A DNA stretch of 64,000 bases from Terriglobia bacterium (GCA_035308965.1 DATGFN010000015.1:121762-185761); one strand, 5' to 3'. Shown: positions 8,332-40,645, numbered from the stretch's first letter. The notes: a model not told the origin generated them from the sequence alone. Program-made: numbers and translations.

Positions 8332-8363
8332 AGGGCTTTCAAGGGGTGAGAATAATGTGTTTC

Positions 8364-8468
8364 GGTATTTCAGTTTCTCAGTATTTCAGTGGGTCAGGTG
8401 ATCGGGCTACGGATAGTTCCGCCACTCGCGCGACTTAGAATTTCTTAACTGAGCAACTGAAATACTGA
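8364..8468. repeat. AT-rich intergenic palindrome (12-bp perfect inverted repeat CAGTATTTCAGT / ACTGAAATACTG with about 65-nt spacer)
   Basis: Read directly: tatttcagt occurs twice at 8366-8390 and its reverse complement at 8456-8467. It lies in the 160-bp gap below coaX. Confidence 0.6.
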
Positions 8469-8493
8469 CAACCTGAAGACCTTTCTTACCTTT

Positions 8494-9336
8494 TCACTTC
8501 TGACTCCTGTCCGTTGGCTGACGGACTGACTTCTGCCTTCTCTCTTCCATATTTCTCTCGTAAATAATCCGCAAGCCTTCCAGGGTCAAAGAAGCTTCAA
8601 CCGGGGGCTTGTATTTGGACGCGCCCGCCACTAGCGGGGCTTGTCCCCCTGTGGCAACCACTTTGGTTGCATTTCCCAAATCACGGCAGAGGCGGTCCAG
8701 GACGCCGTCCACCAGGCCCACGGCGCCATAGAACAGACCGGACTGCATGCTGCTGACGGTGTTGGTTCCGATCACGTGCTGAGGTTCGCGAATTTCGACG
8801 CGAGGCAGGCGGGCCGCCCTCTGGAAAAGCGCTTCCGCCGAGATCCCGATGCCGGGCGCGATGACTCCGCCCAGGTATTCACCTTTTTCCGACACCACGT
8901 CGAAAGTGATGGCCGTGCCAAAATCTACAATGACGCACGGACCTCCGTATTTCTCAAAGGCGGCCACGCTATTGGCAATGCGGTCCGCGCCCACTTCCAG
9001 AGGGTTGTCATAGTGGATCGCCATCCCCGTGCGGATCCCCGGCTCAAGGAAAAAGGCCTTGAGGCGAAAATATTTCACCGCCATCTCCTCCAGGAGAGTA
9101 TTGAGGGGCGGGACAACGCTCGCCACCATAATCGCGGATATTTGATCCGCTTGAATTCCTTCCAGAGAGAACAGGTTGCGAATCAGGATTCCGTATTCAT
9201 CGGCGGTTTGGGCGCGGTTGGTGGTCAATCGCCACTGGGCGAGCAGTTCCTTTTCCTCAAACACGCCGAGAACAGTATTGGTGTTTCCTACGTCGATTAC
9301 CAGGAGATTGGAGTTGGATTTTGGCATTTTAGTCAA
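8494..9336 (-). CDS. coaX: type III pantothenate kinase
   Basis: Contains LLVIDVGNTNTVLGVF and the acetate/sugar kinase fold motifs of CoaX/Bvg accessory factor. The conserved birA-coaX gene order is also present. Confidence 0.9.
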   Translation of the reverse strand: MTKMPKSNSNLLVIDVGNTNTVLGVFEEKELLAQWRLTTNRAQTADEYGILIRNLFSLEGIQADQISAIMVASVVPPLNTLLEEMAVKYFRLKAFFLEPGIRTGMAIHYDNPLEVGADRIANSVAAFEKYGGPCVIVDFGTAITFDVVSEKGEYLGGVIAPGIGISAEALFQRAARLPRVEIREPQHVIGTNTVSSMQSGLFYGAVGLVDGVLDRLCRDLGNATKVVATGGQAPLVAGASKYKPPVEASLTLEGLRIIYERNMEERRQKSVRQPTDRSQK

Positions 9337-9345
9337 AAGGTAAGC

Positions 9346-9462
9346 GGCAGGTAGAAGGTTGCATGTGGGCCAAAACTAGAAACCTTATCATCCAAAACTT
9401 CGAGCCATTTGGATTTCAAGTACGAATCTTGAAACCCGGCCCACATTCCACATGCCACCTGC
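9346..9462. repeat. imperfect long inverted repeat with AT-rich nested palindrome in coaX-birA intergenic region
   Basis: ggcaggt...gcatgtgggcc pairs with ggcccacat...acctgcc. The inner palindrome is tttcaag-tacgaat-cttgaaa. Confidence 0.5.
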
Positions 9463-9474
9463 CATCTTCCCCCC

Positions 9475-10467
9475 TCATTTTACTTCCAAAATTTCTCCTG
9501 AAACCAACGATTCCTCTTTTCCATCCTCGCGGCGGATGCGCAGCATCCCGCTCGGGTCCAAACCCGCCGTGACGGCCTGAAAATCCTCGCCGCTTGTCCG
9601 CACTCGGATCGTTTTCCCATCGGCGTAGGTCGAGGCTTTGGCCCAGGCGCGAAGAATCGGCGCGTTACCTTCGTTCTTCAGCAATTCGTAACTTCTCTCC
9701 AATTCTTTTAAGAGTCCAACCAGAATTTGCGCTCGGGAGTAACTTCTTCCGCCTTCGATGCGTAAAGACGTAGCCGTCGCCGTGAGTTCCGAGGGCATGG
9801 ATTTATTGTTCACATTCACGCCAATTCCCAACACCACATGGTGCAGGCGGCCCAACTCGGCGTTCATTTCCGTCAAAATCCCGCAAACCTTTTTACGGTT
9901 CACCAGCAAGTCGTTGGGCCAGCGAATGTCAACTTCAAGTCCGGTGGCGGCGGATAGCGCGCGATGGGCCGCCAAGCCCGCCATCAAAGTGAGCGCCGGA
10001 GCATCGGCGGGGGAAAGTTTCGGACGCAGGATGACCGAGGCGTAGATGCCGCTGGATTTTTCAGAAAACCACTTTCGTCCGAAGCGGCCTCGGCCCGCCG
10101 TTTGTTCTTCCGCCACCACCACGGTTCCCTCTGCAGCTCCCTCCACGGCCAGCGCCAGGGCGGTGTTATTGGTCGAGTCGATCCGGAAATAATGGATGAT
10201 CTTGTGGCCGATCTCGTTTTCGCCGAGCTCCGGTTGGATGAGGCTGGGCGCCAGGATGTCCGGCAGGGTGCGAAGCTGGTAGCCACTTGACGTGTGCCCC
10301 TGAATTTCAACGCCCAAAGCGCGGAGTTTTCCCACGTAATTCCACACGGTGGAACGGGTCACGCCGATCTGGGAGGCGATTTTGGGTCCGGGCAACACAA
10401 CGGTCGCATTCTTCACCAACACTGAAATCAGTTTGTCCATGCGGCGATCTGTGGCAGCCGTGCCCAT
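9475..10467 (-). CDS. birA: bifunctional biotin operon repressor / biotin--[acetyl-CoA-carboxylase] ligase BirA
   Basis: N-terminal HTH, the GRGRFGRKW motif and the BPL catalytic domain (ILTEMNAE...GIGVNVN). Confidence 0.85.
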   Translation of the reverse strand: MGTAATDRRMDKLISVLVKNATVVLPGPKIASQIGVTRSTVWNYVGKLRALGVEIQGHTSSGYQLRTLPDILAPSLIQPELGENEIGHKIIHYFRIDSTNNTALALAVEGAAEGTVVVAEEQTAGRGRFGRKWFSEKSSGIYASVILRPKLSPADAPALTLMAGLAAHRALSAATGLEVDIRWPNDLLVNRKKVCGILTEMNAELGRLHHVVLGIGVNVNNKSMPSELTATATSLRIEGGRSYSRAQILVGLLKELERSYELLKNEGNAPILRAWAKASTYADGKTIRVRTSGEDFQAVTAGLDPSGMLRIRREDGKEESLVSGEILEVK

Positions 10468-10506
10468 AGGATTTCATCGATAAATCTGCGGGGGAAATTG
10501 CAAGAG

Positions 10507-10595
10507 GGAAACTGGAAATTAGAAAATTGAAACTGGTACCAACAATTGGGGGATTACATCCATTTTCCAATTTCCAGTTTCTAATTTCCAGCTTC
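10507..10595. repeat. AT-rich nested hairpin repeat (GGAAATTAG-type units) between birA and valS
   Basis: Left arm ctggaaattagaaaattgaaactgg; right arm ccaatttccagtttctaatttccag. The 14-bp core tttctaatttccag is a perfect inverted match, and the loop is 29 nt. Confidence 0.65.
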
Positions 10596-10601
10596 CCGTT
10601 T

Positions 10602-13364
10602 CTATTTGTCTCCCAATCTTTCCAGGGCTTCTATAACTTTGCCTAGATGTTCAGTCAGTTCGGCATGTCGGCGCTCGACCCCGCGTACCACGTCGCGCGG
10701 CGCCCGGCTGACAAAGCCCTGATTATCCAACTGCTTTTTCGCCTGGCTGAGCGCCAGCTCCAGCTTTTCTTTTTCGCGCTCCAGCCGCAGGCGTTCGGCG
10801 GCGGGGTCCACCGTCTCTTGGTGCAAAATCCGAAGATCAAATGTGGCCGTGTGATGGACGCCGGCAGGCTCTCCTGTCATCCGTCCGCGGGTAAAATTCA
10901 TCGCCTGCAATCCCGCCAGCCGATGAATGGAATCCTGGTGAGCGCGAAACAGTTCCAGCACGCGCATGTCATCACAGGCCACCTGGGCGCTGGGTTTCTG
11001 TTTTTGCAGATTCAAATCGGCTTTGGCATTGCGCGCCGCGACAATTAACTCCTGCACGGTTTCAAACTGCTTTTCGGCAATGGGATCGGCCACTCGCTCG
11101 GTCACCAGATTAAAGGGCGCCAGGGAAATGGATTCCTCGCGAGGACGGCGGCCCAGCTCGTGCCAAAGCTCTTCGGTGATGAAGGGCATGAAGGGGTGGA
11201 GCAGGTGGAGGGCGCTTTCAAACACCCGCGTCAGGTTAATCCACGTTGCCAGGGTAGCGGGCTCGTCGCTGGATTTCGTGATCTCGGGCTTTACCCACTC
11301 CAGATACCAATCGCAAAACTCGTGCCAGAAAAAATGGTAGATCTTGTCCGCCGCTTCATGAAAGCGGTATTGGCCTAGGGCCTCGTTGATCTCATGAGTA
11401 GTCGTCCACAAACGCGAGAAAATCCAGTGGTCCGCCAGCGAAAGATGTTCCGGCGAAGCGGCGGGCTCAAATCCCATCCCCGGCATCGGCTTTAAGGCAT
11501 CGGCAATCTGATGCTGAACGTTTTCCGGAAGTTTGCGGAAATTCATCAGCACAAACCGGGCGGCATTCCAGATTTTATTGGCAAAGGCGCGGTAGGAATC
11601 AAACTTCTCCGGACTCACCACAATATCGGTGCCGGGCGCGGCGCTGATGGCCAGGGCAAAACGCACGGCGTCGGTTCCGTATTTCTCCGTCACTTCAAGC
11701 GGATCGATCACGTTGCCCTTGGTCTTGGACATCTTCTGGCGCTCTGCGTCCCGCACCAGGGCATGGATGTAGAGCTCGCGAAAGGGAACTTCGCCCATGA
11801 ATTTCAAGCCCATCATGATCATCCGCGCACCCCAGAAAAACAGGATGTCGAACCCCATGATCATCAGGTTCTGCGGATAAAAATAAGCCAGGTCCTGCGT
11901 TTTGTCCGGCCAACCGAGAGTGGCAAACGGCCACAAGGCGGAGCTGAACCATGTGTCGAGTACATCGGTTTCGGGGCGAAGCGATCCTGACCCGCACTTC
12001 GGGCAAACATGGGGAGTCTCGCAGGCCACAATCACGGAGTTGCAGGACAAGCAATACCACGCGGGGATGCGATGGCCCCACCAGAGCTGGCGCGAGATGC
12101 ACCAGTCGTGAATTTTGTCCATCCAGTCGAGATAGATTTTCCTGTACTGGTCGGGGACAACTTGAATTTTTCCCTCTTCCACCACCCGCACAGCAGGCTC
12201 CGCCAGGGGCTGCATTTTCATGAACCACTGGGTGGAAAGACGCGGCTCAACAATGGAATGGCAGCGCTGACAAATCCCAACGCTCAACGGGTAGTCCTCG
12301 ATTTTTTCCAGCAGCCCCTGCGCGGTGAGATCACGCACCACGGCCTGGCGCGCTTCAAACCGGTCGAGGCCGCGGTAAGGGCCGGCCTCCTCGGTCATGC
12401 GCCCGTCCTCGTCAATCACCTCGATGCGGGGCAATTTGTGGCGCTCGGCAATTTCATAATCATTGGGGTCGTGGGCGGGCGTCACTTTCACTGCGCCGGT
12501 CCCGAATTTCGGATCCACGAAGTCGTCCGCCACCACGGGAATGAATCGCTTGAGCAGAGGCAACTCGACGCGGGAATCCACCAACTCGCGGTAGCGCGGG
12601 TCGGAAGGGTTGACGGCCACCGCCGTATCGCCCAGCATGGTTTCAGGGCGGGTGGTGGCGACCGTGATGTGCCCCGGACGCTTTTCCAGCGGATAACGGA
12701 TAAACCAAAGCTTCCCCTGCCGCTCTTCGTGCACCACTTCCAGGTCAGAGACGGCGGTGCCGCAGCGAGGACACCAATTGACAATGTATTTACCGCGGTA
12801 AATCAGTCCCTCTTCAAACAGGCGCACGAATACTTCCACCACGGCGCAGGTGTAGGCGGGGTCCATGGTAAAGCGATCGCGAGTCCAATCGCAGGACGCG
12901 CCCATGCGCTTCATCTGTTCGCGAATGGTTCCGCCGTTCGCTTCTTTCCATTTCCAGCAGCGCTCGATAAATTTCTCCGGCCCCATTTCCCGTCGCCGGC
13001 GCTGCCCTTCGTGCTGCCAGGTCCTTTGGGTGGCGGGCCCAGGCTCAAGGTCAGGTAACGCCTCGCGGCCGAGTTCGCGCTCCACGATCATCTGGGTGGC
13101 GATGGAGGCGTGGTCGGTGCCCGGAAGCCAAAGCACGTTTTCGCCCTTCATGCGGTGCCAGCGCATCAAGATATCAATCTCACCGTGCTCCAGCATGTGC
13201 CCCATGTGGAGCGAGCCGGTAATGTTGGGAGGGGGAATGGTGAGGGCAAATCGTGGCCGCGTGGGATCATCGGAAGGACGATAGAGCTTCTGCTCAACCC
13301 ATTGGCGCGCCCATTGCGGCTCAATCGTTTCCGGCGAATATAATTTGGGGATTTCAGGTTCCAA
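10602..13364 (-). CDS. valS: valine--tRNA ligase
   Basis: HIGH motif (PPPNITGSLHMGHML), KMSKS motif (KMSKTKGN), 920 aa and a C-terminal coiled coil. Confidence 0.95.
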   Translation of the reverse strand: MEPEIPKLYSPETIEPQWARQWVEQKLYRPSDDPTRPRFALTIPPPNITGSLHMGHMLEHGEIDILMRWHRMKGENVLWLPGTDHASIATQMIVERELGREALPDLEPGPATQRTWQHEGQRRRREMGPEKFIERCWKWKEANGGTIREQMKRMGASCDWTRDRFTMDPAYTCAVVEVFVRLFEEGLIYRGKYIVNWCPRCGTAVSDLEVVHEERQGKLWFIRYPLEKRPGHITVATTRPETMLGDTAVAVNPSDPRYRELVDSRVELPLLKRFIPVVADDFVDPKFGTGAVKVTPAHDPNDYEIAERHKLPRIEVIDEDGRMTEEAGPYRGLDRFEARQAVVRDLTAQGLLEKIEDYPLSVGICQRCHSIVEPRLSTQWFMKMQPLAEPAVRVVEEGKIQVVPDQYRKIYLDWMDKIHDWCISRQLWWGHRIPAWYCLSCNSVIVACETPHVCPKCGSGSLRPETDVLDTWFSSALWPFATLGWPDKTQDLAYFYPQNLMIMGFDILFFWGARMIMMGLKFMGEVPFRELYIHALVRDAERQKMSKTKGNVIDPLEVTEKYGTDAVRFALAISAAPGTDIVVSPEKFDSYRAFANKIWNAARFVLMNFRKLPENVQHQIADALKPMPGMGFEPAASPEHLSLADHWIFSRLWTTTHEINEALGQYRFHEAADKIYHFFWHEFCDWYLEWVKPEITKSSDEPATLATWINLTRVFESALHLLHPFMPFITEELWHELGRRPREESISLAPFNLVTERVADPIAEKQFETVQELIVAARNAKADLNLQKQKPSAQVACDDMRVLELFRAHQDSIHRLAGLQAMNFTRGRMTGEPAGVHHTATFDLRILHQETVDPAAERLRLEREKEKLELALSQAKKQLDNQGFVSRAPRDVVRGVERRHAELTEHLGKVIEALERLGDK

Positions 13365-13515
13365 TGTTTGCTTTCCTCAACGGTAAACCCTGCCCGGAGC
13401 GGCAAACGTGGTTCATCCGCTCTAACGGCAGGGCCAGTATCGCTAATGAATTCAAATAACTATAGCCTTTGGCCCGAATTCAGTCAAATTTCGGGCGTCG
13501 TGTGGCGCGCCACGA

Positions 13516-14871
13516 TTAGTTCTTGTGGAGGGAAGGAGCGCTTAGCTCAGCGGTGATTTCGCTGGAGATGGGTTTGGCGATTTCCTCAATGGCTTTAGGA
13601 GAGAGTCGCGGAGACATCTTGGCAACAACCAGGTAAACGATGGAATAAACTTGTGACGGATCGAGGGTTTGGGGCAATCCTGCCTCAGGAGCGGGAGCTG
13701 CTACAGCTGCTGGCGTCTCTTCCGGGATAAGCCCGGCATCCTGCGACACAGCAGGGGGCGCCTCCTCAGCGGCGGCGGGTTCTGGCTCAACCGCATGGGG
13801 AGCGAGCCGGACGCTCCCGGCAGCGGCTTCGCTTAACGAAAAACTTTCGAGTGTCGTTGGTGAAACCGGAGCGGATTCTTCCACTTCACTCGGCCCGGCC
13901 GCAGGAGCCGCTTCCGGAGGAGCTTGAATGGACATCGCTTCCGCGGATTGCTCCTCAAGGATGGGCGGGGGCGCATGCTCCGGAGCAGGCGCGAGTTCGT
14001 CGCTCAAAACCGGTTGCGCGATGTCCGCCGGCGCGCGAAACATAATGGTGCGCTCGGTAACATGCTCGTGCGGATGTTCGTGTTCCTCATGGTGCTCAGG
14101 GGCGGCTTGCTCTTCAATCAGCACCGGTTCGGCGGGCGCTGGAGTTTCCGTAGCCTGGATTACGGGCATCTCGGCGATAAATTCCGCCGGAGCTGCTGAA
14201 GCGTGGGGGTCTTCCACCTCAATGATGGGCTCTTCGGTGATCTGAGGAGCTGCCTCTATCACATGGGAAGGCTCAGGCTGAATTTCGAATTCAGCCGATG
14301 GCGCGGGCTCAGCAGGTGCAGGTTCAGCCTGAATCTCTTCCAGCGCCTCGGCAAATGCCATTCCGCCGCCGAATTGCGAGAAGTCCGGGGTGGCTTCTTT
14401 GGGGGCAATCTCGGGCTCTTCATCCACAGGCTCATTTACAAAAGTGGGTGGAGCTGCGGGTTTCACTACGGGAACGGGCTCGGGTTTGGCTGCGGCAGCC
14501 TCGGCGATGGCGAGGTATTTGTTTACCGTGGAAATCAACTCATCACGGTCAAAAGGTTTCTTGATCCGGGCGTCGGCGCGGACGCGCGATCCCCTTTGCT
14601 CGTCCAAAACGTCGTCATCACTGAAAACGAGGATTACGGGCACATTGGCATATTCCTTTGAGCCTTTGACGAATTCGCAGACCTCATAGCCGTCCTTGCC
14701 CGGCATGGCAATGTCAGCCAGAATCACCATGGGAAGAACGGTGGGCAGCTTCTTAATTGCGGCTACGCCGTTCGACACGGTGACAACTTCCAAGCCCTCG
14801 CCCGTCAATACTCCGCTGGCTTTCTTTTGAACGGTTGGGCTGTCGTCCGCGATTAAAACCTTACGCGCCAC
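13516..14871 (-). CDS. response regulator (CheY-like receiver) with about 330-aa Pro/Ala/Glu-rich low-complexity C-terminal region
   Basis: The N-terminus (MARKVLIADDSPTVQ...ILADIAMPGKDGYEV...KKPF) is a receiver domain. The remainder is a PAE-rich tract ending in a short conserved tail. Confidence 0.75.
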   Translation of the reverse strand: MARKVLIADDSPTVQKKASGVLTGEGLEVVTVSNGVAAIKKLPTVLPMVILADIAMPGKDGYEVCEFVKGSKEYANVPVILVFSDDDVLDEQRGSRVRADARIKKPFDRDELISTVNKYLAIAEAAAAKPEPVPVVKPAAPPTFVNEPVDEEPEIAPKEATPDFSQFGGGMAFAEALEEIQAEPAPAEPAPSAEFEIQPEPSHVIEAAPQITEEPIIEVEDPHASAAPAEFIAEMPVIQATETPAPAEPVLIEEQAAPEHHEEHEHPHEHVTERTIMFRAPADIAQPVLSDELAPAPEHAPPPILEEQSAEAMSIQAPPEAAPAAGPSEVEESAPVSPTTLESFSLSEAAAGSVRLAPHAVEPEPAAAEEAPPAVSQDAGLIPEETPAAVAAPAPEAGLPQTLDPSQVYSIVYLVVAKMSPRLSPKAIEEIAKPISSEITAELSAPSLHKN

Positions 14872-14981
14872 TCATGGCCTCCTGTTTTGGGGTCAATGAT
14901 TCGCCGCCGTGAGAAATACCATTTCGGGACGCTGAAGTCAAGGCGCAATCGCAGTCGTCTCATTTCGCAGGCCTCCGGAGC

Positions 14982-15407
14982 TTAAGGATAAACCCGATAA
15001 AGGAGCCAGTAAACCATCACTCCGGTAATGGATACATAGAGCCAAGCCGGGAGTGTCCATCGCGCGATGCGCTTGTGCAGGTCGAATCGTTTTTTCCAGG
15101 CGCGATAAAGCGTGGTTAGGATCAGGGGAACAATCAACGCCGCCAAAATTGTGTGTGAACCTAGTAAAGTGAAATAAAAGGGGCGAATCAGGCCCTGCCC
15201 CATGAAACGTGTGACACCATGATGCGCGTGGTACCAGAGGTAGCAGACAAGAAATAGCGAGGACGTCCCAAACGCCGATAGCATGCAGATTTTATGAGCC
15301 AGGATGCGTTTATTGCGTATGAAGTAGTAACCGAGGGTCAGCAGGACGGCACTGGCGGCGTTCAGCGAGGCGTCGAGCGCCGGAAAATCAGAGAGGGGAA
15401 GGATCAC
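14982..15407 (-). CDS. DUF420 family membrane protein
   Basis: 4-TM protein of 141 aa with the pattern LNAASAVLLTLGYYFIRNKRILAHKICM. DUF420 proteins commonly accompany heme-copper oxidase genes. Confidence 0.55.
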   Translation of the reverse strand: MILPLSDFPALDASLNAASAVLLTLGYYFIRNKRILAHKICMLSAFGTSSLFLVCYLWYHAHHGVTRFMGQGLIRPFYFTLLGSHTILAALIVPLILTTLYRAWKKRFDLHKRIARWTLPAWLYVSITGVMVYWLLYRVYP

Positions 15408-15468
15408 GGGTTGAGTTTACAGTTGATAGCTGACTGTTGAAAGTTAAAAACAAAGGCGAATAGCCGCC

Positions 15469-16362
15469 TTAAGCTTTATGGGCAATCAGGAAAAGCCTGC
15501 CTGATCCGAGCTTGAACGGCTCCAGGTCAAACGAGCTAAATGCTTGGGTGCGTGAGAATCCGGCCTCCTCGAGCAGGTGACAGATCTCTCGATAGGTGTA
15601 AACGCGATCGGATGAAGTTTTCTTCTCCTCTTTCCCGTTTCGCACAAAAGTGTATTCGGTTTCCATGCGTCCGTGAACGTGGTCCCACCGGTTCTCTTCA
15701 AGAAAGAGGATGTCGCCCACACGCACCCACTCGCGTTCTCGGACAATGGGCAGCACCACTTCTGCCACCCGGCTGGCATCGAGGACGAACCGGCCTCCCG
15801 TATTGAGGGCGCGAAAAACGGATTTCAGAAAACCGGCATGCCCCGCGTCATCGAAGTATCCGAAGCTGCCTCCCATACAGAAGGCCGCGTCAAAATGCTC
15901 CGCCCAATCCATGCGGCGCATATCACCTTGTTTCCAACCAATATTCATGCCCTTCGCAGAAGCCTTGCGCCGGCCCTCTTCCAGAAATGCCGGGGCAAAA
16001 TCGAGTCCGGTCACCTGGAAGCCGCGCGACGCCATGGCGAGCGAGAGCCGCCCTTCACCGCAGGGAACATCCAATACCTTTGCGGAGGGGGCGAGGGCGA
16101 GTACCTTCTGAAGAAAGTCCGCCTCGGCCTGGGTTTGTTCTTCGGAAAAAACCTGGCGCCACATGTCCAGGGCAATTCCGTCGAAAAAACTCTCCCACCA
16201 TTCTTGGGACACAATCCACCCACTTTTGTCGACAGATTCCTTGCGGTCGGACGTGGTTAACTCGAGGCTTGGCCGGAAGGCACACTGGGCGGCTCGGCGG
16301 AGTCCGGTTTCTTCTTCGCGTGTTCCATCGCCCGCTTTAGCTCTCCCGTGAAAACGGACCAT
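15469..16362 (-). CDS. class I SAM-dependent methyltransferase
   Basis: Motif I VLDVPCGEGRLSLAMA...GLDF. The true start is probably downstream of the track start, because the track ORF overlaps the upstream small gene. Confidence 0.7.
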   Translation of the reverse strand: MVRFHGRAKAGDGTREEETGLRRAAQCAFRPSLELTTSDRKESVDKSGWIVSQEWWESFFDGIALDMWRQVFSEEQTQAEADFLQKVLALAPSAKVLDVPCGEGRLSLAMASRGFQVTGLDFAPAFLEEGRRKASAKGMNIGWKQGDMRRMDWAEHFDAAFCMGGSFGYFDDAGHAGFLKSVFRALNTGGRFVLDASRVAEVVLPIVREREWVRVGDILFLEENRWDHVHGRMETEYTFVRNGKEEKKTSSDRVYTYREICHLLEEAGFSRTQAFSSFDLEPFKLGSGRLFLIAHKA

Positions 16363-16580
16363 ACAACGTTTAACATAAACACGCCGCCAATGGTCAGGCT
16401 AATAATTGTCAGGGCGATGCCATCCAAAGTCAAAATTTGACCGGTCATGACGAGATAGGCGAAGACACCGAGCGAGATCAGCCCGGCAAGAAGGCAGAAG
16501 CCGAATAAGATGAGCGTCTCAAGCATGGAGGTTTGTTCCTTGCCCCGCGTAATGCCCTGAGGATCCTGAAAATCCGGCAT
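16257..16580 (-). CDS. small two-TM membrane protein (hypothetical)
   Basis: ORF with two predicted hydrophobic helices (LILFGFCLLAGLISLGVFAYLV and IALTIISLTIGGVFMLNVVW). Confidence 0.35.
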   Translation of the reverse strand: MPDFQDPQGITRGKEQTSMLETLILFGFCLLAGLISLGVFAYLVMTGQILTLDGIALTIISLTIGGVFMLNVVWSVFTGELKRAMEHAKKKPDSAEPPSVPSGQASS

Positions 16581-16625
16581 TGGTCAAACAGGAGTTCACA
16601 GTCTGCCGTTGAAGTCTGGTTGAGA

Positions 16626-17558
16626 TCAAAACAAAACCTTGTCCACGATCATGAGACCAAAAATCAACGGCAAATAAAATACGGATGCCAGGAGGAGGCG
16701 CCGTGCCAGCAACTTGGACCGTACCTTGGCCGTCAGAACGCCGCAATAAAGGAGGCCCAGCCCCAAGGGGAGCGCACCCATGAAATAAACCCAGCCCATC
16801 TGGCCCAGCCAGGTGGGGAGCAAGCTGATCGGCAAGAGAGCGAGCGAGGTCACGAGAATCTGCCGCGCGGCCTTTCGCCCTTGTGGGTCATCGGCCGGAA
16901 GCATGAAAAGTCCCGCCCGTTCGTAATCCTCGCGGTACATCCAGGCGATGGAAAGAAAATGCGGGAACTGCCATATAAAAAGGATGGCGTATAGCGTCCA
17001 AGCTTCAAGATTCAGGGTACCGCGCGCCGCCGCCCACCCAATCAATGGCGGCATGGCCCCCGGAAAAGCGCCCACCAGCGTGCAGTAGGTAGTTTTCCGT
17101 TTGAGTGGAGTATAAAGAAGAAGGTAGCTCGCAAGAGTAAGGAACGCCAGGGCACTGGCTAGAAAGTTGGCTGCCCACCAGAGGTATAAACAGCCGCCCA
17201 CTGAAAGGATAATTCCAAACCACAGGGCTTCCGAAGGCGAAAGTCTTCCCGCGGGCAAGGGTCGATTGGCGGTTCGCCGCATGCGGGCGTCAGACTGGCG
17301 TTCAAACCATTGGTTCAGGGTCGCCGTGCCACTTGCCACCAGTAGAGTGCCGGCAAGGGTGTGGAACAGGAGCAAATAATTCACCGGGCCGCGCCAACCA
17401 AGGTAGAAACCCGCAAGCGAGCTGGCTACAACCAGCGAATTCACCTCGGGCTTGGTGAGCGTCCAATAGTCCCCGAGTTTGCCGCGCCACCCGGCCCCGA
17501 CCGCGCGGGGCAGCGGATTGACTGCCGCGATCACCGAGTTGTCTACAACGCTGCCCAT
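16626..17558 (-). CDS. ctaB: protoheme IX farnesyltransferase (heme O synthase)
   Basis: UbiA-family motifs (NQWFERQSDARMRRTANRPLPAGR). Start assigned to the ATG at 17558, which lies 10 nt after the ctaA stop; the long N-terminal track extension overlaps ctaA. Confidence 0.85.
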   Translation of the reverse strand: MGSVVDNSVIAAVNPLPRAVGAGWRGKLGDYWTLTKPEVNSLVVASSLAGFYLGWRGPVNYLLLFHTLAGTLLVASGTATLNQWFERQSDARMRRTANRPLPAGRLSPSEALWFGIILSVGGCLYLWWAANFLASALAFLTLASYLLLYTPLKRKTTYCTLVGAFPGAMPPLIGWAAARGTLNLEAWTLYAILFIWQFPHFLSIAWMYREDYERAGLFMLPADDPQGRKAARQILVTSLALLPISLLPTWLGQMGWVYFMGALPLGLGLLYCGVLTAKVRSKLLARRLLLASVFYLPLIFGLMIVDKVLF

Positions 17559-17568
17559 TAATTTTCCT

Positions 17569-18513
17569 TCAAACCGCAACGTTTTCCCGCATCGAAGAGA
17601 GCTCCGGGGCCGCATCGGGCGCCGCGACAAACCGGTAAGTCTGATAGGTAAGCGCCAAACTGGCCGCCAGAACCAACGCGCCCACCGCAACGTGGGTGGT
17701 GGTGACCAGAACCACGGGCGGCAAGGGCTGGGGTGCGTTTTGATTTGTCCAAACTTCCCAATAGGAGCCAACGCCGAGGGCCACCTGCGCCACCAGCAAC
17801 CCGGTGAGCAGCCCAATGGGCCGCGTGAGATGGCGTTCGGTTCTAAATTCGATGAGCACCCGCACCAGCATCCAAACCACTGCGATAGTTACCAGGCCCG
17901 CTCCCACCACGTGAGGGATGATTCCAAACCCATGATGACGGAAAGCCGCGCCCATCATGAGCTGAAGAAAAATCAAAACCGTCGTAGCCGTGGCCAGCCG
18001 TCGAAGAGAAACCGTTGAGGTTTCTCTTGCCTTGGGCTCGTCCCAACCCCAGCCCGGTTGGGTAAATAATGCGAGGCTTACCATGATGCAGAAAAAAGCC
18101 TGGGCCAAACAGGCGTGAGCCACGGAAACATCCACGGGCAAAAAGAAAAGGACCGTGATGCCGCCCAAAATGGCTTGCGCAAAGATGGTGAGGACAGCAA
18201 TCGCGCCCAAGCGGCGCACCCATCGTCGCGGCTCATACCGCCAGAGACAGGCCGCGAGAATCAGGGTGAAAATCACCACCGTCCCCGCCACCATGCGATG
18301 TCCGTGCTCGAACTTGACGCCCCCCACCATGCGCGGCATGCGAAAGGTCCCAAACGAAGTCGGCCAGTCCGGAACGGAAAGGCCTGCATCATTGGACGTC
18401 ACCAGCGCCCCGGCGATAATCAAAATGAAAGTGGCGGCGGCAACAAACGTCGCGTAGCGGTGCAGCCATCTTTGCTGTAAGGTCTGTGCCATTTTCGAAG
18501 CTATGCATTCCAA
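17569..18513 (-). CDS. ctaA: heme A synthase (COX15/CtaA)
   Basis: 8-TM protein with a CtaA/COX15-like N-terminus (ATFVAAATFILIIAGALVTSNDAGLSVPDWP) and conserved His-bearing helices. Confidence 0.85.
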   Translation of the reverse strand: MECIASKMAQTLQQRWLHRYATFVAAATFILIIAGALVTSNDAGLSVPDWPTSFGTFRMPRMVGGVKFEHGHRMVAGTVVIFTLILAACLWRYEPRRWVRRLGAIAVLTIFAQAILGGITVLFFLPVDVSVAHACLAQAFFCIMVSLALFTQPGWGWDEPKARETSTVSLRRLATATTVLIFLQLMMGAAFRHHGFGIIPHVVGAGLVTIAVVWMLVRVLIEFRTERHLTRPIGLLTGLLVAQVALGVGSYWEVWTNQNAPQPLPPVVLVTTTHVAVGALVLAASLALTYQTYRFVAAPDAAPELSSMRENVAV

Positions 18514-18821
18514 GGCGCAACCGCGGCGTTCGGCGCATCGTGATTTGCCGGGTCTGGGTGAAACTCTGTCCCATCGTCAACGCCCGCGTTAAAGCTATTC
18601 CGCCGGCGGAATAGCACACCAAAAATCAAAATGAACATCAGGAGCGAAGGGAACATCATCACCAGCACACCCGTCCTCAGTGCCTGCAACATTCCCGGAG
18701 CTTGCGTAGCGGCGTTCTGGTAACATGCGGGGCAGGTCTGAGCCAATGCCACGCTGGAACTCGCAAGCGCGGCAAGACCCGCCGAAATTCGCAGCAACTT
18801 TGCCCGAATTGGATGCTGTAA

Positions 18822-18859
18822 ATCTGAAATTTGAAATTTCAGATTTGAAATTTGAAATC
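18822..18859. repeat. AT-rich palindrome TCTGAAATTTGAAATTTCAGA followed by GAAATTTG repeats
   Basis: Read directly. The longer track ORF 18501..18893 translates through this palindrome (SGFQISNLKFQISDLQ), so that N-terminus is not real. Confidence 0.6.
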
Positions 18860-18973
18860 CACTTTTCACGATCTGCCGTCCCCTACTTTCCACGTCATGT
18901 CTTCCACCTTCTCCGCACCAAGTCGCCGCTTTTTCTCAGTTCATCATTCATAATTCATCATTCATACTTTCTT

Positions 18974-19288
18974 TCAGTGCACCTTCATCGCCAGAATGCG
19001 AAGACTGTCTGGAAACACCACAAACAACATTCCCACCACAAACAGCAACGCCGGCATCAGGGTCAGGATCAGACTGCGGCGCTCATACCGGAGGTGCATG
19101 AAATAAGCGATGATGAGCGACGCTTTAATAAGCGAGAGGCCCATCAACAGGGCGAGCATCAGCTTCAGTTCCAATTGCTCATAGGCCAGGATGACTTCGA
19201 TTGCGGTCATCCCCAGCAGCGAAAACCAAACGGTGAAAGTCACCTTCTTGCTGATTTCATCGTGGGCATGTTCACTGGTTGCGCTCAT
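18974..19288 (-). CDS. cytochrome c oxidase subunit IV (prokaryotic CtaF/CoxD-like)
   Basis: 104-aa 3-TM protein containing AYFMHLRYE, resembling bacterial oxidase subunit IV. It sits immediately downstream of the subunit III genes. Confidence 0.6.
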   Translation of the reverse strand: MSATSEHAHDEISKKVTFTVWFSLLGMTAIEVILAYEQLELKLMLALLMGLSLIKASLIIAYFMHLRYERRSLILTLMPALLFVVGMLFVVFPDSLRILAMKVH

Positions 19289-19358
19289 TCGATCTCAAAC
19301 CTCCAATTTTAGCTGCGGCCGGCGCCTGTCCCTGGAAAGGGAGACCGCCTTCAGCCCA

Positions 19359-20000
19359 TCAAATTTTTGCCGACAGCAGATAGACCAGCGGGAAGATGAA
19401 CATCCAAACCAAATCGACAAAATGCCAATACAGTCCGGCGACTTCCACCACTTCATCGTTATATTTTCCCCGCGCCGTACCCAAGGCCACCACGGCAAGA
19501 TAGAAAACCCCGATGGTGACGTGGGTCATGTGCAGGCCGGTCAATCCGAAAAATGTTGCGCCAAACAACGGCGTGCCCCATGGATTTCCCCAGGGAGTCA
19601 CGCCCTGGTGAAACAATCCAAACCATTCCCGAAGGTGGAGGATGTCAAACAAGACTCCCCCCATCAGCGTCGCAAAGAGCCAACCTGCCGCGCGTTTGGG
19701 AATGCCCATCTTGGCGGCGCGCACGCCCAGCACCATGGTGACCGAACTGCTGAGCAGGACCAGGGTCATCACGGTGGCGTTGATGACGCTGGCTGATTCA
19801 AAGGGTCTCGGCCACGTTTCGGTCGAGGTGCGTGTATAACTATATGCAACCAGCAGTGCGGAGAAGGTGATGGCGTCGGAAACGATGAACAGCCACATTC
19901 CCAGCTTGTTCGAACCGATGGCGTACGGAGATCCGCCCCCGGACCAAATCGTTTCACGCCCCCCGGGAGTGGCGGTTAAATCCTGAGCATGGCTCGACAT
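19359..20000 (-). CDS. cytochrome c oxidase subunit III
   Basis: COX3-family helices (GMWLFIVSDAITFSALLVAYSY...LYWHFVDLVWMFIFPLVYL). Confidence 0.8.
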   Translation of the reverse strand: MSSHAQDLTATPGGRETIWSGGGSPYAIGSNKLGMWLFIVSDAITFSALLVAYSYTRTSTETWPRPFESASVINATVMTLVLLSSSVTMVLGVRAAKMGIPKRAAGWLFATLMGGVLFDILHLREWFGLFHQGVTPWGNPWGTPLFGATFFGLTGLHMTHVTIGVFYLAVVALGTARGKYNDEVVEVAGLYWHFVDLVWMFIFPLVYLLSAKI

Positions 20001-20001
20001 C

Positions 20002-20673
20002 CTATAACCTCACCGTAAGCAGAAGTAGGAGATAAATCCACAGCCCGTCCATAAAATGCCAATAGATGGCGGTCACATCCACCGCCACGCGCTTTTTCAG
20101 GCCAACTGCCAACTTCGGAGCCTTCCAGACAAGGTAGAAAAGCGCGCCCACACCACCCAGCAAGTGCAGTCCGTGCGCCGCCGTCAGCAGGTAAAAGAAC
20201 GAACTGCTGGGATTGGTGGAGAGATACACGCCATGCGACGCCAGTTCGCGCCAAGCGATCAGTTGACCGCCAATGAAAGCGATGCCGAGGATTGTGGTGA
20301 CATTGAGCCAAAGCTTGAAATCGCGGGCTCTGCCGGCGTCGAGCGCTCTGCGAGAAAATTCGAATGCCAGACTGCTGGCCAGCAGAAGGAGAGTATTGAA
20401 ATAAAGAATGCGCGGTAGCGCAATCGCTGTCCAGTCGGACGATGCGCCCTTGCGGACAACCATCGCGCTGGTGAAAGCCGCGAACAACATTACAATGGCG
20501 ACGAGCGCCATCCACATGCCGGTACGATAGGTACGCGCCGGCACGCTCCATTCCCGGTTTTCTCTTCCGCCATCCCTTCCGTACCCGCGCCCGCCGAAAC
20601 CATTCCCGCCGCCTCCCGTCGCATTGCTTCCCGGCGGAGTTGTAAGTCTGGGCGGAGTGAGAACAGTTGCCAT
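20002..20673 (-). CDS. second cytochrome c oxidase subunit III-family protein (paralog with Gly-rich N-terminal extension)
   Basis: Contains ...AIYWHFMDGLWIYLLLLL, a COX3 signature. It sits in tandem with the preceding COX3 gene, separated by 1 nt. Confidence 0.7.
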   Translation of the reverse strand: MATVLTPPRLTTPPGSNATGGGGNGFGGRGYGRDGGRENREWSVPARTYRTGMWMALVAIVMLFAAFTSAMVVRKGASSDWTAIALPRILYFNTLLLLASSLAFEFSRRALDAGRARDFKLWLNVTTILGIAFIGGQLIAWRELASHGVYLSTNPSSSFFYLLTAAHGLHLLGGVGALFYLVWKAPKLAVGLKKRVAVDVTAIYWHFMDGLWIYLLLLLTVRL

Positions 20674-20763
20674 ACTTAGTCCGATGCAACTCAGGATTCA
20701 AAATTCCAAATTCCAGAATCACTTAACCATCTTTATCTTACTGCCTTCTGCCTTCTGCCTTCT

Positions 20764-22545
20764 TCATTCAGCCGCTACTTTCTCCGGCGAATCCTGCATG
20801 ATGTAATCTTTCTCAGCGCCCGGGACGCCAAATTCATAGGCGCCGTGGTAGACCACCGGATGTTTTCCGGCAAAATTATCGAAGGGCGGCGGAGAGGGAA
20901 TAGTCCACTCGAGCGTCGTTGCTTCCCACGGATTCTCAGACGCCTTCTCACCTTTGAACATGCTCCAAAAAAGGTTGGCCACGAAAATGATCTGGGCGCC
21001 CGCGGTGATGAACGCCGCATAAGTCATGAACATGTGCAGGTCAATAATATGGGGTGTATTCAGGAAATTGACTTCCGTAAACTGGGAGTACCGCCGAATG
21101 TTCCCCGCCACGCCCAGGAAGTGCATGGGCATGAAGATGCAGTAGACGCCGACAAAAGTAATCCAGAAATGTAACTTACCCAGGGATTCGTTCAACATGC
21201 GGCCAAACATTTTGGGAAACCAGAAGAATGTTCCGGCAAACATTCCGAAAATGGCGGCCACGCCCATCACCAGGTGGAAGTGCCCAACCACAAAATAAGT
21301 GGCGTGAAGATTGATGTCCACAGGCGGCTGGGCGAGAAACAGCCCGCTGAGTCCGCCGCTGACGAATAGAGAAACGAATCCGATGGAGAACAGCATAGCG
21401 GTGGTCATGCGCAGCCTGCCGCCCCACAGCGTCCCCAGCCAGTTGAATGTCTTGATGGCACTCGGCACGCCGATCGCCATGGTCATCACGGAAAATGCAA
21501 AGCCGGAATAGGGGCTCATGCCGCTCAAGAACATGTGGTGGCCCCAAACCATGAAGCCCAGGAATCCGATGGCGGACATGGCGTAAATCATGGCCTTGTA
21601 GCCAAAGATCGGCTTGCGTGAAAACGTGGAGATAATGTGTGAGGTCACGCCCATGCCCGGCAGGATAGCAATGTAAACTTCCGGGTGACCGAAGAACCAG
21701 AACAAGTGCTGCCAAAGGAGCGGCGACCCGCCGCTATGTGGAATGATTCTATCGCTCACCACAAGGCCGGCAGGGATGAAGAAACTGGTGCCGCCTACGC
21801 GGTCGAGAAGCAGCAAAACGCCAGCGGCCAGCAGAACGGCAAATGAGAGCAGCGCCAGAATCGCGGTGATCAACCACGCCCAAATGGTAAGCGGCAGGCG
21901 CGTGAGCGTCAGTCCTTTTGCGCGCAAATCGAGTGTAGTGGCAATGAAATTCAGCGCGCCCAGCAACGAACCGACGCAAAAAATTGCGATGGAAACTATC
22001 CATAAAGTTTGGCCCAGACCTTCGCCCGGCCCCGCTGCCGATCCGATGGCGCTCAAGGGCGCATACCCTGTCCAGCCGGAAAGAGGCGGGCCGTCCTGGA
22101 TGAAGAAAGTTGAAAGAAGAACCACGAAGCCCACAAAAGTGGTCCAGAAGGAAAGCATGTTCAGCGTGGGGAAAGCCATGTCTTCAGCGCCCAACTGGAT
22201 GGGCAGGATGTAATTGCCAAACCCGCTTTGGGGCGCGGTGGTGAGCACGAAGAAAACCATCAATGTGCCGTGAAGGGTCATCAGGGAGAGGTAATATTCA
22301 GGCGTCATCACGCCGCCGGGAGCGCCGCTGGGAGAAAGCTTGTCAAGCAGCGGGATATGTGCGGCGGGCCACACCATGTGCAAGCGCATGAAAACTGAAA
22401 GCACGATGCCCACAAGAACCGACGCCAGGGCCAGGAAGTAATACTGTTTCCCGATCACCTTGTGGTCAAGGCTGAAGATGTATTTCCTTATGAAGCCGGT
22501 GGGCGCCGTGTGATGGTGAACGGCCTCCGCGTGCGCATCTGCCAT
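20764..22545 (-). CDS. ctaD: cytochrome c oxidase subunit I
   Basis: WFFGHPEVYI motif, 12 or more TM helices and 593 aa. Confidence 0.95.
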   Translation of the reverse strand: MADAHAEAVHHHTAPTGFIRKYIFSLDHKVIGKQYYFLALASVLVGIVLSVFMRLHMVWPAAHIPLLDKLSPSGAPGGVMTPEYYLSLMTLHGTLMVFFVLTTAPQSGFGNYILPIQLGAEDMAFPTLNMLSFWTTFVGFVVLLSTFFIQDGPPLSGWTGYAPLSAIGSAAGPGEGLGQTLWIVSIAIFCVGSLLGALNFIATTLDLRAKGLTLTRLPLTIWAWLITAILALLSFAVLLAAGVLLLLDRVGGTSFFIPAGLVVSDRIIPHSGGSPLLWQHLFWFFGHPEVYIAILPGMGVTSHIISTFSRKPIFGYKAMIYAMSAIGFLGFMVWGHHMFLSGMSPYSGFAFSVMTMAIGVPSAIKTFNWLGTLWGGRLRMTTAMLFSIGFVSLFVSGGLSGLFLAQPPVDINLHATYFVVGHFHLVMGVAAIFGMFAGTFFWFPKMFGRMLNESLGKLHFWITFVGVYCIFMPMHFLGVAGNIRRYSQFTEVNFLNTPHIIDLHMFMTYAAFITAGAQIIFVANLFWSMFKGEKASENPWEATTLEWTIPSPPPFDNFAGKHPVVYHGAYEFGVPGAEKDYIMQDSPEKVAAE

Positions 22546-22698
22546 CTGTATGTCTCCCTTGCGATAATTGCCGATTTCTGATTGACGATTGAAGATTTAA
22601 CGCCCGTTCGCCTTTTCAAACAGACTCATTTAAAGAATTGGCAGCGCAGCCACTTTGGATCCTAAAATCGTCAATCGACAATCGTAAATGGTCGATTC

Positions 22699-23535: not shown

Positions 23536-23714
23536 AAGTTCTCCTCTTTAGAGGTAGACAGCAAACAGTAGAGGGTATACAGGGACGATGAATCGTTCTA
23601 AAGATTCACCCTTCAGGCCCTGATTACAAACGCGCTCCCCAGCGCGGATCTCATCAGTCCCGTTTTTGTTTTTCCCTGGCTACAGTCTACTGTCTGCTAC
23701 CTACTTTACTTACC

Positions 23715-27779: not shown

Positions 27780-27894
27780 TGCGCTGCTCCTCGTAGCGCC
27801 GGGCTTCAGCCCGGCATCTTAATCATTTGTGATTTGTCTTGAACCCTGCCGCCCTGAAGGGCGGCGCTACAACATCACTGCAATGCGTTAATTC

Positions 27895-28836: not shown

Positions 28837-28909
28837 TTATGACCTCAAAATAGATGGTTAGGTGGCATGTAGAATGTGGGCCCACCCACCACATGCGACT
28901 TGCTACCTA

Positions 28910-29818: not shown

Positions 29819-30015
29819 GAATCTCCTGAGTGCAGTGACGAGTGACGAGTGATGCGTGACAAGCTCTGACCGTTGACTTCGCCTGCTCGCAGATTGATGC
29901 TCTGCTCCCTACAGTTTGCCCCATTACCTTTCTTCCTCGCTCAGCCATCAGTGGTTCGTTTAGGTGTTTTCTTACTTCCTGCTCGCCACTCGTCATTAGT
30001 CACTTGTCACTGTTC

Positions 30016-34118: not shown

Positions 34119-34229
34119 CCGCATTATACACAACACGACGCAGCCTTTAAAAATCATTCCTGGGGCGCGGCGCAAACTCTGGGCCGATTGAATTCCCACC
34201 ATGCGCTGCATTAAGATGGGGAGCATCTC

Positions 34230-40468: not shown

Positions 40469-40645
40469 GGGAGATCTTGCGCTGTTCGCGATGGTTTAAG
40501 TTCTAGGGGTGCTCCATCCCAAAGTCAAAGTCCATGTTTAAACCAGATTTCCGTCATAATGGAATCTTGAACCCCAAATAGTATGCTCAAATTGTGCTTG
40601 CCGAATACACTTCTTAATTTTGGTTAGAGTCCGAATTTGCATGAT

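Follow-up and report, generated by a model that had tools for sequence, protein, structure and literature searches.

Heptamers have been described as an over-represented class of long simple-sequence repeat in many prokaryotes, and polymerase slippage has been proposed as their origin (Mrazek 2007, as cited in PMC4679880 and PMC4692102). In cyanobacteria, short tandemly repeated repetitive (STRR) sequences consist of 7-bp repeats that can form hairpins between co-transcribed genes, for example between hupS and hupL (PMC2670836), and it has been suggested that the STRR hairpin stabilises the transcript or couples translation (PMC2670836, PMC4692102). In Beggiatoaceae, some cyanobacteria and Bacteroidetes, TAACTGA repeats are oriented in sense, with their ends about 1 nt ahead of start codons (MacGregor 2015, PMC4679880), and the GGGAATC and GGGGAYT heptamers of Xanthomonas and Nostoc keep their place between the same genes, vary in length and are sometimes inverted (PMC4692102). 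A literature search on intergenic heptamers in Acidobacteria returned no description in the library covered. Here, we describe palindromic heptamer elements in the intergenic gaps of a 64,000-nt stretch of Terriglobia DNA (GCA_035308965.1, DATGFN010000015.1:121762-185761; hereafter the window) and in related loci, some of whose units are resembled by the cyanobacterial units TTGTCAG, CTACTGA and TAGGGGT (PMC2408588).

The elements are shown to be heptad-periodic, inverted, intergenic and locus-specific, to be inherited in place and to be unstable both in unit number and in pairing. The explanation that we favour, with a probability of roughly 55%, is that they are locally generated heptanucleotide simple-sequence-repeat arrays of the STRR kind, mostly arranged as inverted pairs around a unique spacer and with a unit of their own in each gap, which originated by slippage and are tolerated.

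Results

Palindromic elements recur in intergenic gaps of the window

The window is part of a contig from an uncultured member of the Acidobacteriota (Terriglobia), whose ValS is 73-75% identical to that of the best species representatives. A 245-kb contig from a JGI soil metagenome (3300005538 Ga0070731_10000042) matches the window at 100% identity, and so does an independently assembled Logan contig. Since two separate assemblies are identical, the repeats are not an assembly artefact. From ~3.4 to 33 kb the genes lie almost all on the minus strand, and Pfam matches there define a valS -> birA -> coaX string. Upstream of this string is a respiratory cluster that comprises Rieske, split cytochrome b, multihaem cytochrome c, CarboxypepD_reg, COX2, COX1 and two COX3 genes, followed by COX4, a small membrane protein, CtaA, CtaB, a methyltransferase and DUF420. 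The elements described below lie on the minus strand, except for one plus-strand element in a kinase gene.

The first-pass annotation of this region had reported long inverted repeats of GAAATT/AATTTC-type units in five AT-rich gaps. Each gap was folded as sense-strand RNA and compared with 200 dinucleotide shuffles, and the result was expressed as a z-score. The five gaps are AT-rich as reported (GC 0.39-0.49 vs ~0.56 for the window), and three of them, none of which was matched in folding by any of its shuffles (0/200), contain strong inverted repeats with z-scores from -4.4 to -5.6. In the valS -> birA gap (10492-10597; arms 10506-10536 and 10567-10597; z -5.6), the element starts 5 nt past the valS stop and has 31-nt arms of CTGGAAA, TTAGAAA and TTGGAAA units that are 87% complementary. 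In the birA -> coaX gap (9346-9463; arms 9346-9371 and 9438-9463; z -5.1), the 26-nt arms of GGCAGGT, GGCATGT and GGAATGT units are 81% complementary, and the spacer contains two small inner hairpins. The gap from coaX to a 236-aa gene is filled by an inverted repeat (8362-8477; arms 8362-8397 and 8448-8477; z -4.4) with 29-nt arms that are 86% complementary and a unit of ~8 nt (TATTTCAGT / ACTGAAATA; lag 8). This element, which stops 30 nt before the next start, is the sole CTGA-type element among the window's own, with the TCAG-type arm 5' and the CTGA-type arm 3'.

The perfect cores noted earlier are present as well, with 12 bp in 8362-8477 and 14 bp in 10492-10597. Hairpins had been placed in two consecutive gaps of the coaX-birA-valS string; they are there, and the consecutive gaps are three. 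The remaining two of the five gaps agree less well with the earlier description, as one contains a modest 40-nt palindrome (18820-18860; z -2.2, with 7/200 shuffles equally good) and the other, 20691-20724, is a direct repeat. The proposed unit fits three of the five gaps; the units are GGCAGGT/GCATGTG in 9346-9463 and TATTTCAGT, of 8-9 nt, in 8362-8477. In addition, five members had been overlooked (18933-18973, 20732-20774, 22562-22694, 23554-23704 and 29824-30015), and an in-frame element in a kinase gene, suspected to be related, is a GGAATTA heptamer inverted repeat and a member of the class. These results support the view that palindromic elements form a recurring, non-random class in intergenic gaps.

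The common denominator is a seven-nucleotide period

We scanned the window for internal periodicity with a sliding 21-nt window, requiring at least 16 self-matches at lags from 2 to 15. Lag 7 gave 13 segments and lag 14 gave five, whereas lags 4, 8 and 12 gave one, one and two and all others none; 100 dinucleotide shuffles of the window contained on average 0.06 lag-7 segments. The scan was extended to a comparison set of 1.55 Mb, made up of the window and 80 valS-centred Terriglobia loci, at a threshold of at least 17/21 matches. Here, lag 7 gave 67 segments vs 0-9 at lags that are not multiples of 3 or 7. The set contains 147 arrays, which are patchily distributed among Terriglobia genomes.

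The units themselves have no sequence in common. Those of the window are CTGGAAA, GGCAGGT, AAATTTG, TGAATGA, AGAAGGC, CGATTGA, GTAGACA, AGTGACG and GGAATTA, and 95 unit types occur among the 147 arrays. The source genome was inspected over ~84 kb (the window and 20 kb of extra source contig), and within these 64-84 kb each array has its own unit, except for the pair 9438-9460 and 28860-28882. These are the only two window loci with a common unit (GGCATGT/GGGCC), and the 9438-9460 arm of the birA -> coaX element and its counterpart are 96% identical over 23 nt. The counterpart lies in the gap between the split cytochrome b genes, at a short palindrome (28862-28899) whose fold is not above shuffles (z -0.7).

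Adjoining arrays were frequently reverse-complementary at the unit level (24/64 vs 2.8% expected), and direct copies were found in 4/64. The common denominator of the gaps is therefore the 7-nt period and not a motif: the shared consensus that a repeat family had seemed to call for is missing at the level of primary sequence, but the period, the inverted architecture and the polarity are common to the elements and amount to more than low complexity.

Three ideas on the design of the units were tried and rejected. A conserved core with variable positions, as for a heptad-binding protein, was unsupported, as mismatches inside arrays are spread evenly across the seven positions and do not cluster. 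A mirror-image order of unit variants between arms, taken as a sign of recent inverted duplication or strict register, was barely above chance (Wilcoxon p 0.006, combined per-pair p 0.42) and gives a weak signal only. Stop-bearing units are enriched (97/147 vs 73.9 +/- 4.7), which might suggest that stop codons in all three frames are the purpose of the unit; the 5' arm carries TAG and the 3' arm TGA, and thus no single stop-codon rule fits.

Arrays fill intercistronic gaps and 5' leaders

The great majority of arrays (127/147) lie outside predicted coding sequences, in DNA of which 89% is predicted coding, and their density is 0.93 per kb of gap in co-directional gaps vs 0.42-0.44 in divergent and convergent gaps. 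A pair typically fills its gap, with the 5' arm at or a few nt from the upstream stop and the 3' arm ending at the downstream start or its Shine-Dalgarno sequence. Among 40 start-proximal arrays, 22 end from -8 to +5 nt relative to the first possible start codon, and Shine-Dalgarno-like motifs were present at 6/40 vs a background of 30%. A CTGA unit in sense next to the start codon was found in the relatives, at coaX in 7 loci and at valS in ~12 loci, and in seven genomes (GCTGANN)n runs exactly up to the ATG of coaX. In co-directional gaps of the Terriglobia set, unpaired arrays likewise place CTGA in sense before starts (9:1); the ratio was 21:10 in metagenome contigs, a weaker bias than for pairs.

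The valS leader gives a view of the elements relative to a promoter. In 38 Terriglobales loci a conserved valS promoter, TTTGACC-N17-TGTAAGATC, is followed by a -10-to-ATG interval that is bimodal, with 23-35 nt in 15 loci and 72-136 nt in 23. At least 12 of the 23 long leaders consist of a heptamer hairpin that extends from just past the -10 box to 4 nt before the ATG. A sigma-70-type promoter (TTGACT-17-TATAGT) is also located upstream of valS in the window, at 13459-13487 on the minus strand, and in L031 and L066 the valS -35 element is made by the last unit of a CTACTGA heptamer array. The arrays are residents of particular untranslated segments, namely the valS-birA-coaX spacers, the spacers of the bc-complex/cytochrome-oxidase operon and, in relatives, the valS 5' leader.

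Arrays are inherited in place and change in unit number and pairing

A tblastn search with the small open reading frame (ORF) 18501-18893 found no homologues among the valS-centred loci, and a database protein search was used instead. It reached four contigs (L087-L090) with the gene order of the window, which share with it ~90% amino-acid identity and an identity of 0.58-0.63 at four-fold degenerate sites. Heptamer elements lie in the same seven gaps of these relatives, with arms that are homologous but drifted. Elements in the same gaps with homologous, drifting units argue for vertical inheritance and not for insertion.

Unit counts vary from one genome to another and also, within a hairpin, from arm to arm (window vs L087/L089; L007 vs L020). 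In the valS -> birA gap, L087 has arms homologous to the window's, the 3' arm counting 7 units, and L007 and L020 have an unrelated TAGGGAG hairpin there; in L089, the hairpin homologous to 8362-8477 has extra units in the 3' arm, and homologues of the small ORF vary by +/-3 units in the array that precedes it. In one gap the unit itself was replaced, as COX2 -> COX1 of L088 has GAAGTCA for CGATTGA, and L089 has a decayed homologue in this gap. Hairpin strength changes from genome to genome in a gap-by-gap comparison: z in the birA -> coaX gap was -4.7 in the window vs 0.2 and 0.0 in the relatives, the homologues in L087 and L089 having decayed (z ~0); z in the COX2 -> COX1 gap was -2.1, -2.6 and +1.7 across the window and relatives; and z in the COX1 -> COX3 gap was +1.2 in the window vs -2.6 in L088. 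Orthologue identity was 0.69 in arms, 0.59 in spacers and 0.72 in array-free gaps. Furthermore, three-sequence alignments of two gaps gave covariation terms of -0.43 and +4.11 kcal/mol, with many pairs broken. Taken together, these comparisons give the pattern of arrays that are born, homogenised and decay in place, rather than the one that a tightly constrained RNA or a transposing element would leave.

Elements of the respiratory operon and the kinase gene

In the gap between the methyltransferase and DUF420 genes, a weak heptad-periodic stretch of AGTTGAN (15413-15449; 14/21 matches only; z -1.2) follows a small terminator-like hairpin (15453-15470) and is a marginal member. Upstream of the small membrane-protein gene is the palindromic array AAATCTG AAATTTG AAATTTC AGATTTG AAATTTG (18817-18861), which is kept, with a changed unit number, in L087-L090 and in the called N-termini of homologues. 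The ORF 18501-18893 (18501-18869 in the JGI call) reads through this array, and an artificial extension had been suspected. This is very probably right, judging from the protein alignments: homologues conserve the protein only from LARIAVGLAAL...AQTCPACYQ onward, a start that resembles a signal peptide, and the called N-termini of several are translated array (FQISNLKFQISD) and differ by +/-7 residues, which equals +/-3 heptamers, while others begin later.

Directly after the COX4 stop is a direct array, in sense TGAATGA TGAATTA TGAATGA TGAAC (18933-18973; z +0.4), which has no inverted partner and is kept in L088, L089 and L090. The COX1 -> COX3 gap (z +1.2 as a whole) contains two direct arrays side by side. 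One, AAATTCC on the plus strand and GGAATTT in sense (20687-20723), lies just upstream of the COX3 start, and the other, a perfect (CTGCCTT)x3 on the plus strand and AGAAGGC in sense (20732-20774), begins right after the COX1 stop; relatives have in this gap a complementary pair of arrays, AGAAGTC / CTGACTTC. A 17-20-nt array fragment (GAATTTTGAATCCTGAG, sense) is nearly alike at 20690-20712 of the window and in the COX4>hyp gap of L088 (~9930-9950), two non-orthologous gaps, and the likeness suggests an exchange between arrays or a recurrent origin.

The next two gaps upstream hold inverted repeats. In the COX2 -> COX1 gap (22562-22694; z -1.7), an element of CGATTGA and CGATTGT units begins 5 nt past the stop and ends 16 nt before the ATG, so that only the GGGAG Shine-Dalgarno sequence is left outside the stem. 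In the CarboxypepD_reg -> COX2 gap (23554-23704; z -6.0), units of GTAGACA, GCAAACA and GTATACA enclose a spacer with an inner GC-rich terminator-like hairpin (23631-23646), and AGAGGAG and the ATG come, in that order, after the stem; homologues of this element in L088 and L089 have z -3.2. Finally, an inverted pair of AGTGACG arrays (29824-29864 and 29981-30015; z -1.9) in the Rieske -> cytochrome b gap (29824-30015) reaches from the stop codon to the Shine-Dalgarno sequence.

The only window member that does not lie in a gap is the plus-strand GGAATTA inverted repeat (63823-63944; 16-bp perfect arms; z -3.5), which is in frame in a Ser/Thr kinase gene. It lies in the activation loop just past DFGLAK, and the ORF of 1072 aa is intact, with the Pkinase domain split. 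The gene (window 63016-64000, continued in L083 10575-13793) has two in-frame palindromic inserts, of which the other derives from a GC-rich REP-like (repetitive extragenic palindromic) element. In homologous kinases, different peptides of element origin (GLAPARPAQGPAL, RHGGVKPPL, MLRSAQHDI) occupy the same set of three loops. From these alignments, surface loops of Terriglobia kinases seem repeatedly to capture or tolerate intergenic palindromic DNA.

Other palindromes and RNA features nearby

Two further kinds of inverted repeat were noticed beside the heptamer hairpins. A GC-rich inverted doublet with a GTAG head (27793-27870; GTAGCGCCGGGCTTCAGCCCGGCA ... TGCCGCCCTGAAGGGCGGCGCTAC; GTAGCGCC...GGCGCTAC; z -4.6) is an insertion of ~80 nt immediately ahead of the cytochrome c gene's Shine-Dalgarno sequence. 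L088 and L089 lack it, their orthologous gaps measuring 33 nt, and arms resembling its own are present in L002 and L020. The doublet belongs to a class distinct from the heptamer hairpins, probably a mobile one. As it is inserted relative to the relatives, mobile elements of such a kind do exist in this genome. In addition, a dispersed inverted-repeat element (GTCATyCTGAGCG...CGAAGrATC with GATTCTTCG...CGCTCAGAATGAC) is present inside heptamer-hairpin spacers of several genomes, at L004 15655-15946, at L006 14988-15255 and downstream of valS in L011, and its translation SAQHDI also appears in the kinase loop.

Identity of the elements with a known RNA family was rejected, as Rfam at the gathering threshold matched only a fluoride riboswitch elsewhere in the window (RF01734, 44.7 bits, E 4e-9; 34053-34120, minus strand), upstream of a small minus-strand ORF (33628-34032). 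When 8000-31000 was scanned permissively with Rfam, the sole returns stayed below threshold and resembled eukaryotic miRNA precursors (10495-10609). At 40616-40766 there is a highly stable GC-rich hairpin of a different type, with 43-nt arms (z -6.9 for 40600-40780), in a 556-nt gap at the margin of a stretch of lower GC (40-45 kb, GC 0.48-0.53). The reverse complement of ~56790-56845 resembles the 3' part of a tRNA (…GGGGTCGGGAGTTCGAATCTCTCCGGGCGTACCA), although no complete tRNA was called there, and resolvase and HTH_17 genes (58-59 kb) lie near it; this might be what is left of the site at which an integrated element was attached.

Discussion

Origin and tolerance of the arrays

If the arrays are locally generated simple-sequence repeats, they would originate by replication slippage of 7-nt units, with inverted duplication or templated correction of quasi-palindromes as a possible second source, and would afterwards drift, gain or lose units and decay. 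Paired arms would fold the added 70-150 nt of untranslated RNA into one long stem-loop, and since the arms pair and the insert would thereby be folded away in the transcript, it would be tolerated as harmless. At most, such a stem might block exonucleases or insulate neighbouring cistrons from each other, or might stabilise the transcript at its 5' end. The role as an RNA processing or stability signal that had been considered for these palindromes is possible.

Several observations weigh against slippage and tolerance as the whole account, and the first of them concern sequence and polarity. CTGA or TCAG occurs in 52/147 unit consensuses vs 10 expected, a five-fold excess that hints at selection or a sequence-specific process. 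In the Terriglobia set, inverted pairs have the TCAG-type arm 5' and the CTGA-type arm 3' in 13/13 cases (~7-8 independent loci), and 27/30 informative pairs have the AG-type (CAG, TAG) arm 5' and the CT arm 3'. An independent test was made by scanning metagenomes for (CTGA-N3)x3-CTGA, which yielded 146 arrays in 120 contigs of 28-70% GC. A phased TCAG partner within 300 nt was found upstream only in 41 of these and downstream only in 4. By unit consensus, TCAG was on the left in 24/26 metagenome inverted pairs; for non-CTGA pairs the AG-left preference was weaker (12:6). The polarity of 41:4 in taxonomically mixed contigs shows that some directional rule extends beyond this lineage. The chirality is symmetric between strands, and therefore transcription direction alone cannot explain the rule; a purely neutral, strand-symmetric process does not obviously predict it either. 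The TCAG-5'/CTGA-3' rule is simple and testable, and every mechanism has to explain it. Strongly purine-skewed units also place the purine arm 5' (12/12). A purine-rich 5' arm as a Rho-avoidance device was tried as an explanation and rejected, as it fits the skewed units (12:0) but the TCAG family is of opposite composition.

The other points against it come from placement, conservation and folding. Arrays tend to stop exactly at starts without a Shine-Dalgarno sequence (coaX in 7 genomes, valS in ~12). The arms of the valS leader are conserved across many Terriglobales (AGCACTCAGCATTCAG...), with unrelated spacers. In the window's clade, the sense strand folds better than the antisense strand in 13/17 array gaps (13:3) vs 4/8 controls. 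Finally, no strain variants turned up in which polymorphism in unit number could be seen: exact-protein look-ups matched nothing beyond the source contig and a single identical assembly, and the sequences flanking (CTGCCTT)3 gave no match in a metagenome scan, the source itself included.

Alternative explanations

Some of these points would be accounted for if the elements were selected cis-acting RNAs, that is, long stems that couple the upstream stop to the downstream start or cap the mRNA 5' end, or CTGA arrays that serve as Shine-Dalgarno-independent sites for the ribosome or an OB-fold protein (S1, cold-shock protein) and are gated by the inverted partner. We consider this possible but doubtful. 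The arms reach the start codon at one end and the stop codon or transcription start at the other, the array ends cluster at starts where Shine-Dalgarno-like motifs are scarce (22/40 and 6/40 vs 30%), CTGA is in sense before starts (9:1 and 21:10), the valS-leader arms are kept and the loops are not, and the order of the TCAG and CTGA arms can be counted in support. The TAACTGA repeats are likewise placed, and cold-shock proteins have been proposed to bind one heptamer each (PMC4679880). The sense-strand folding advantage in the window's clade also leans towards relevance at the RNA level. However, the wider set has no overall sense bias (~18 vs 13; valS leaders 7 vs 9), and sense-strand folding or G-U wobble as a signature of RNA selection was set aside as mixed, with 13:3 in the closest clade only. 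The large swings in hairpin strength between orthologous gaps (z -4.7 vs 0.2 and 0.0; -2.1 vs +1.7) also speak against selection on the RNA, as does the existence of many related genomes without any arrays. Moreover, the cox operon of the window has a normal Shine-Dalgarno sequence outside the stem, and its ribosome-binding site is thus not sequestered.

A broader proposal takes the chirality as the defining feature. The hairpins would be more than debris of slippage, and the proposal would unite the acidobacterial arrays, the STRRs and the TAACTGA repeats in one widespread functional class, (TCAG-N3)n ... (CTGA-N3)n with the CTGA arm at start codons, which is read by a factor. This we regard as unlikely, although the 41:4 polarity in mixed contigs speaks for a directional rule of wider reach. 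Under it, a heptad-spaced factor would read single-stranded nucleic acid, and might be an OB-fold/cold-shock-type protein, the ribosome or a primase-like replication enzyme; the function would be Shine-Dalgarno-independent translation control or the management of hairpins.

A role at the DNA level, as a binding array for a nucleoid or other protein, as a cruciform or as a replication site, appears improbable. Bacterial DnaG primase prefers CTG or CTA, and the CTG/CTA-rich 3' arms could for example be clustered primase starts. A DNA-level role would agree with a chirality that is strand-symmetric and set by the palindrome centre rather than by transcription direction, with a complementarity that is Watson-Crick-symmetric and has no consistent G-U signature, and with spacers that turn over much faster than arms, as expected of unstable palindrome tips in DNA. 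Nevertheless, the units are too diverse for one sequence-specific protein, and a 7-bp period is out of helix phase, which would be unfavourable for cooperative duplex binding. As successive units would be placed on different faces of B-DNA, the binding of a nucleoid protein, raised in the first-pass annotation, is unlikely.

It is still less probable that the elements are transcription terminators or attenuators, whether intrinsic without a U-tract or bidirectional, in spite of their strong stems directly past stop codons. The earlier judgement that they are not classical Rho-independent terminators was sound: no U-tract follows the outer stems, and the loops measure 28-135 nt. The spacers of two elements do contain a small GC-rich hairpin with a T-rich sense tail (23631-23646 and 22641-22653), but a scan with the terminator consensus picked no outer hairpin and only these two inner ones, loosely; no T-run was found past the 3' arms, and consensus sites are not enriched in the region (27 vs 22.1 +/- 4.0). 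In addition, the arrays are densest in co-directional, operon-like gaps, such as those between bc-complex and oxidase subunits, and half as dense in convergent gaps, and in relatives they lie within the 5' leader between the valS promoter and the ATG.

A non-autonomous mobile family of the REP/REPIN or MITE (miniature inverted-repeat transposable element) kind with a transposase in trans, to which the palindromes had been tentatively likened, is scarcely tenable: the inverted-repeat architecture, the extragenic location, the copy within the kinase gene with other element-derived inserts in its homologues, the true insertion of the REP-like doublet 27793-27870 relative to L088 and L089, and the 17-nt array fragment common to two non-orthologous gaps are what it has in its favour, but in a blastn search of every element against the window, the 20 kb of extra contig and 1.5 Mb of related loci, spacers had no further copies and arms, apart from one, had none either, arm matches arising only through a shared unit; units are specific to their locus, syntenic relatives hold homologous sequence in the same gaps, and the kinase copy has no visible target-site duplication. 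No gene for a RAYT (IS200-like Y1 transposase) was present in the Pfam lists of the ~84 kb of source sequence.

Comparison with known repeat systems

Locally generated arrays that slip, pair and are tolerated remain the reading that we prefer, and they have practical consequences. Arrays mislead gene callers, as ORF starts are extended through them and in-frame copies occur in kinase loops, and they are open to confusion with MITEs, terminators and small-RNA genes.

The resemblance to Rho-independent terminators is limited to stem-loops just past stop codons; unlike terminators, the elements lack a U-tract, have repeat-built stems of 25-45 bp and loops of 28-135 nt, and are found mainly within operons and 5' leaders. 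Intercistronic REPs can stabilise upstream mRNA segments, as in E. coli malE-malF. Like REP, BIME and REPIN sequences, the heptamer elements are extragenic inverted doublets with predicted hairpins in single-stranded DNA or mRNA (PMC3116915), whereas REPINs are many near-identical palindromes of 20-40 nt linked to RAYTs, and the heptamer hairpins lack a recurring consensus and keep their positions through inheritance.

The described heptamers are closer. In common with those of Xanthomonas and Nostoc, the Terriglobia arrays vary in length and sequence between close relatives while keeping their place, and some form inverted stem-loop pairs; unlike these G-rich, G-quadruplex-capable repeats with one unit family per genome, their units are mostly without G-tracts. 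With the TAACTGA repeats they share CTGA heptamers that are intergenic, in sense and end near starts, and 35% of Terriglobia units contain CTGA. The Beggiatoaceae repeats, however, have one fixed unit and are nearly always direct, with a single inverted case, whereas the three non-core positions of the Terriglobia units vary by locus and about one third of the arrays have an inverted TCAG partner upstream.

The closest likeness of form is to the STRRs of heterocystous cyanobacteria, which are also tandem 7-nt intergenic units and often form hairpins between co-transcribed genes. In Calothrix, a small number of units (STRR1-3) are repeated at many loci within a genome. The arrays described here differ in that they belong to Acidobacteriota and comprise 95 unit types in 147 arrays, vs a few genome-wide families with tens to hundreds of copies, and our literature search found no STRR description that includes the inverted-pair architecture and the TCAG...CTGA chirality. 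Heptamers have been described in cyanobacteria, Xanthomonas and giant sulfur bacteria, and the phenomenon is now shown to be abundant in soil Acidobacteriota, where it takes the form of hairpins occupying untranslated spacers in operons for housekeeping and respiration and where syntenic relatives provide its natural history of inheritance in place, unit drift, expansion and contraction of arms, and decay of hairpins.

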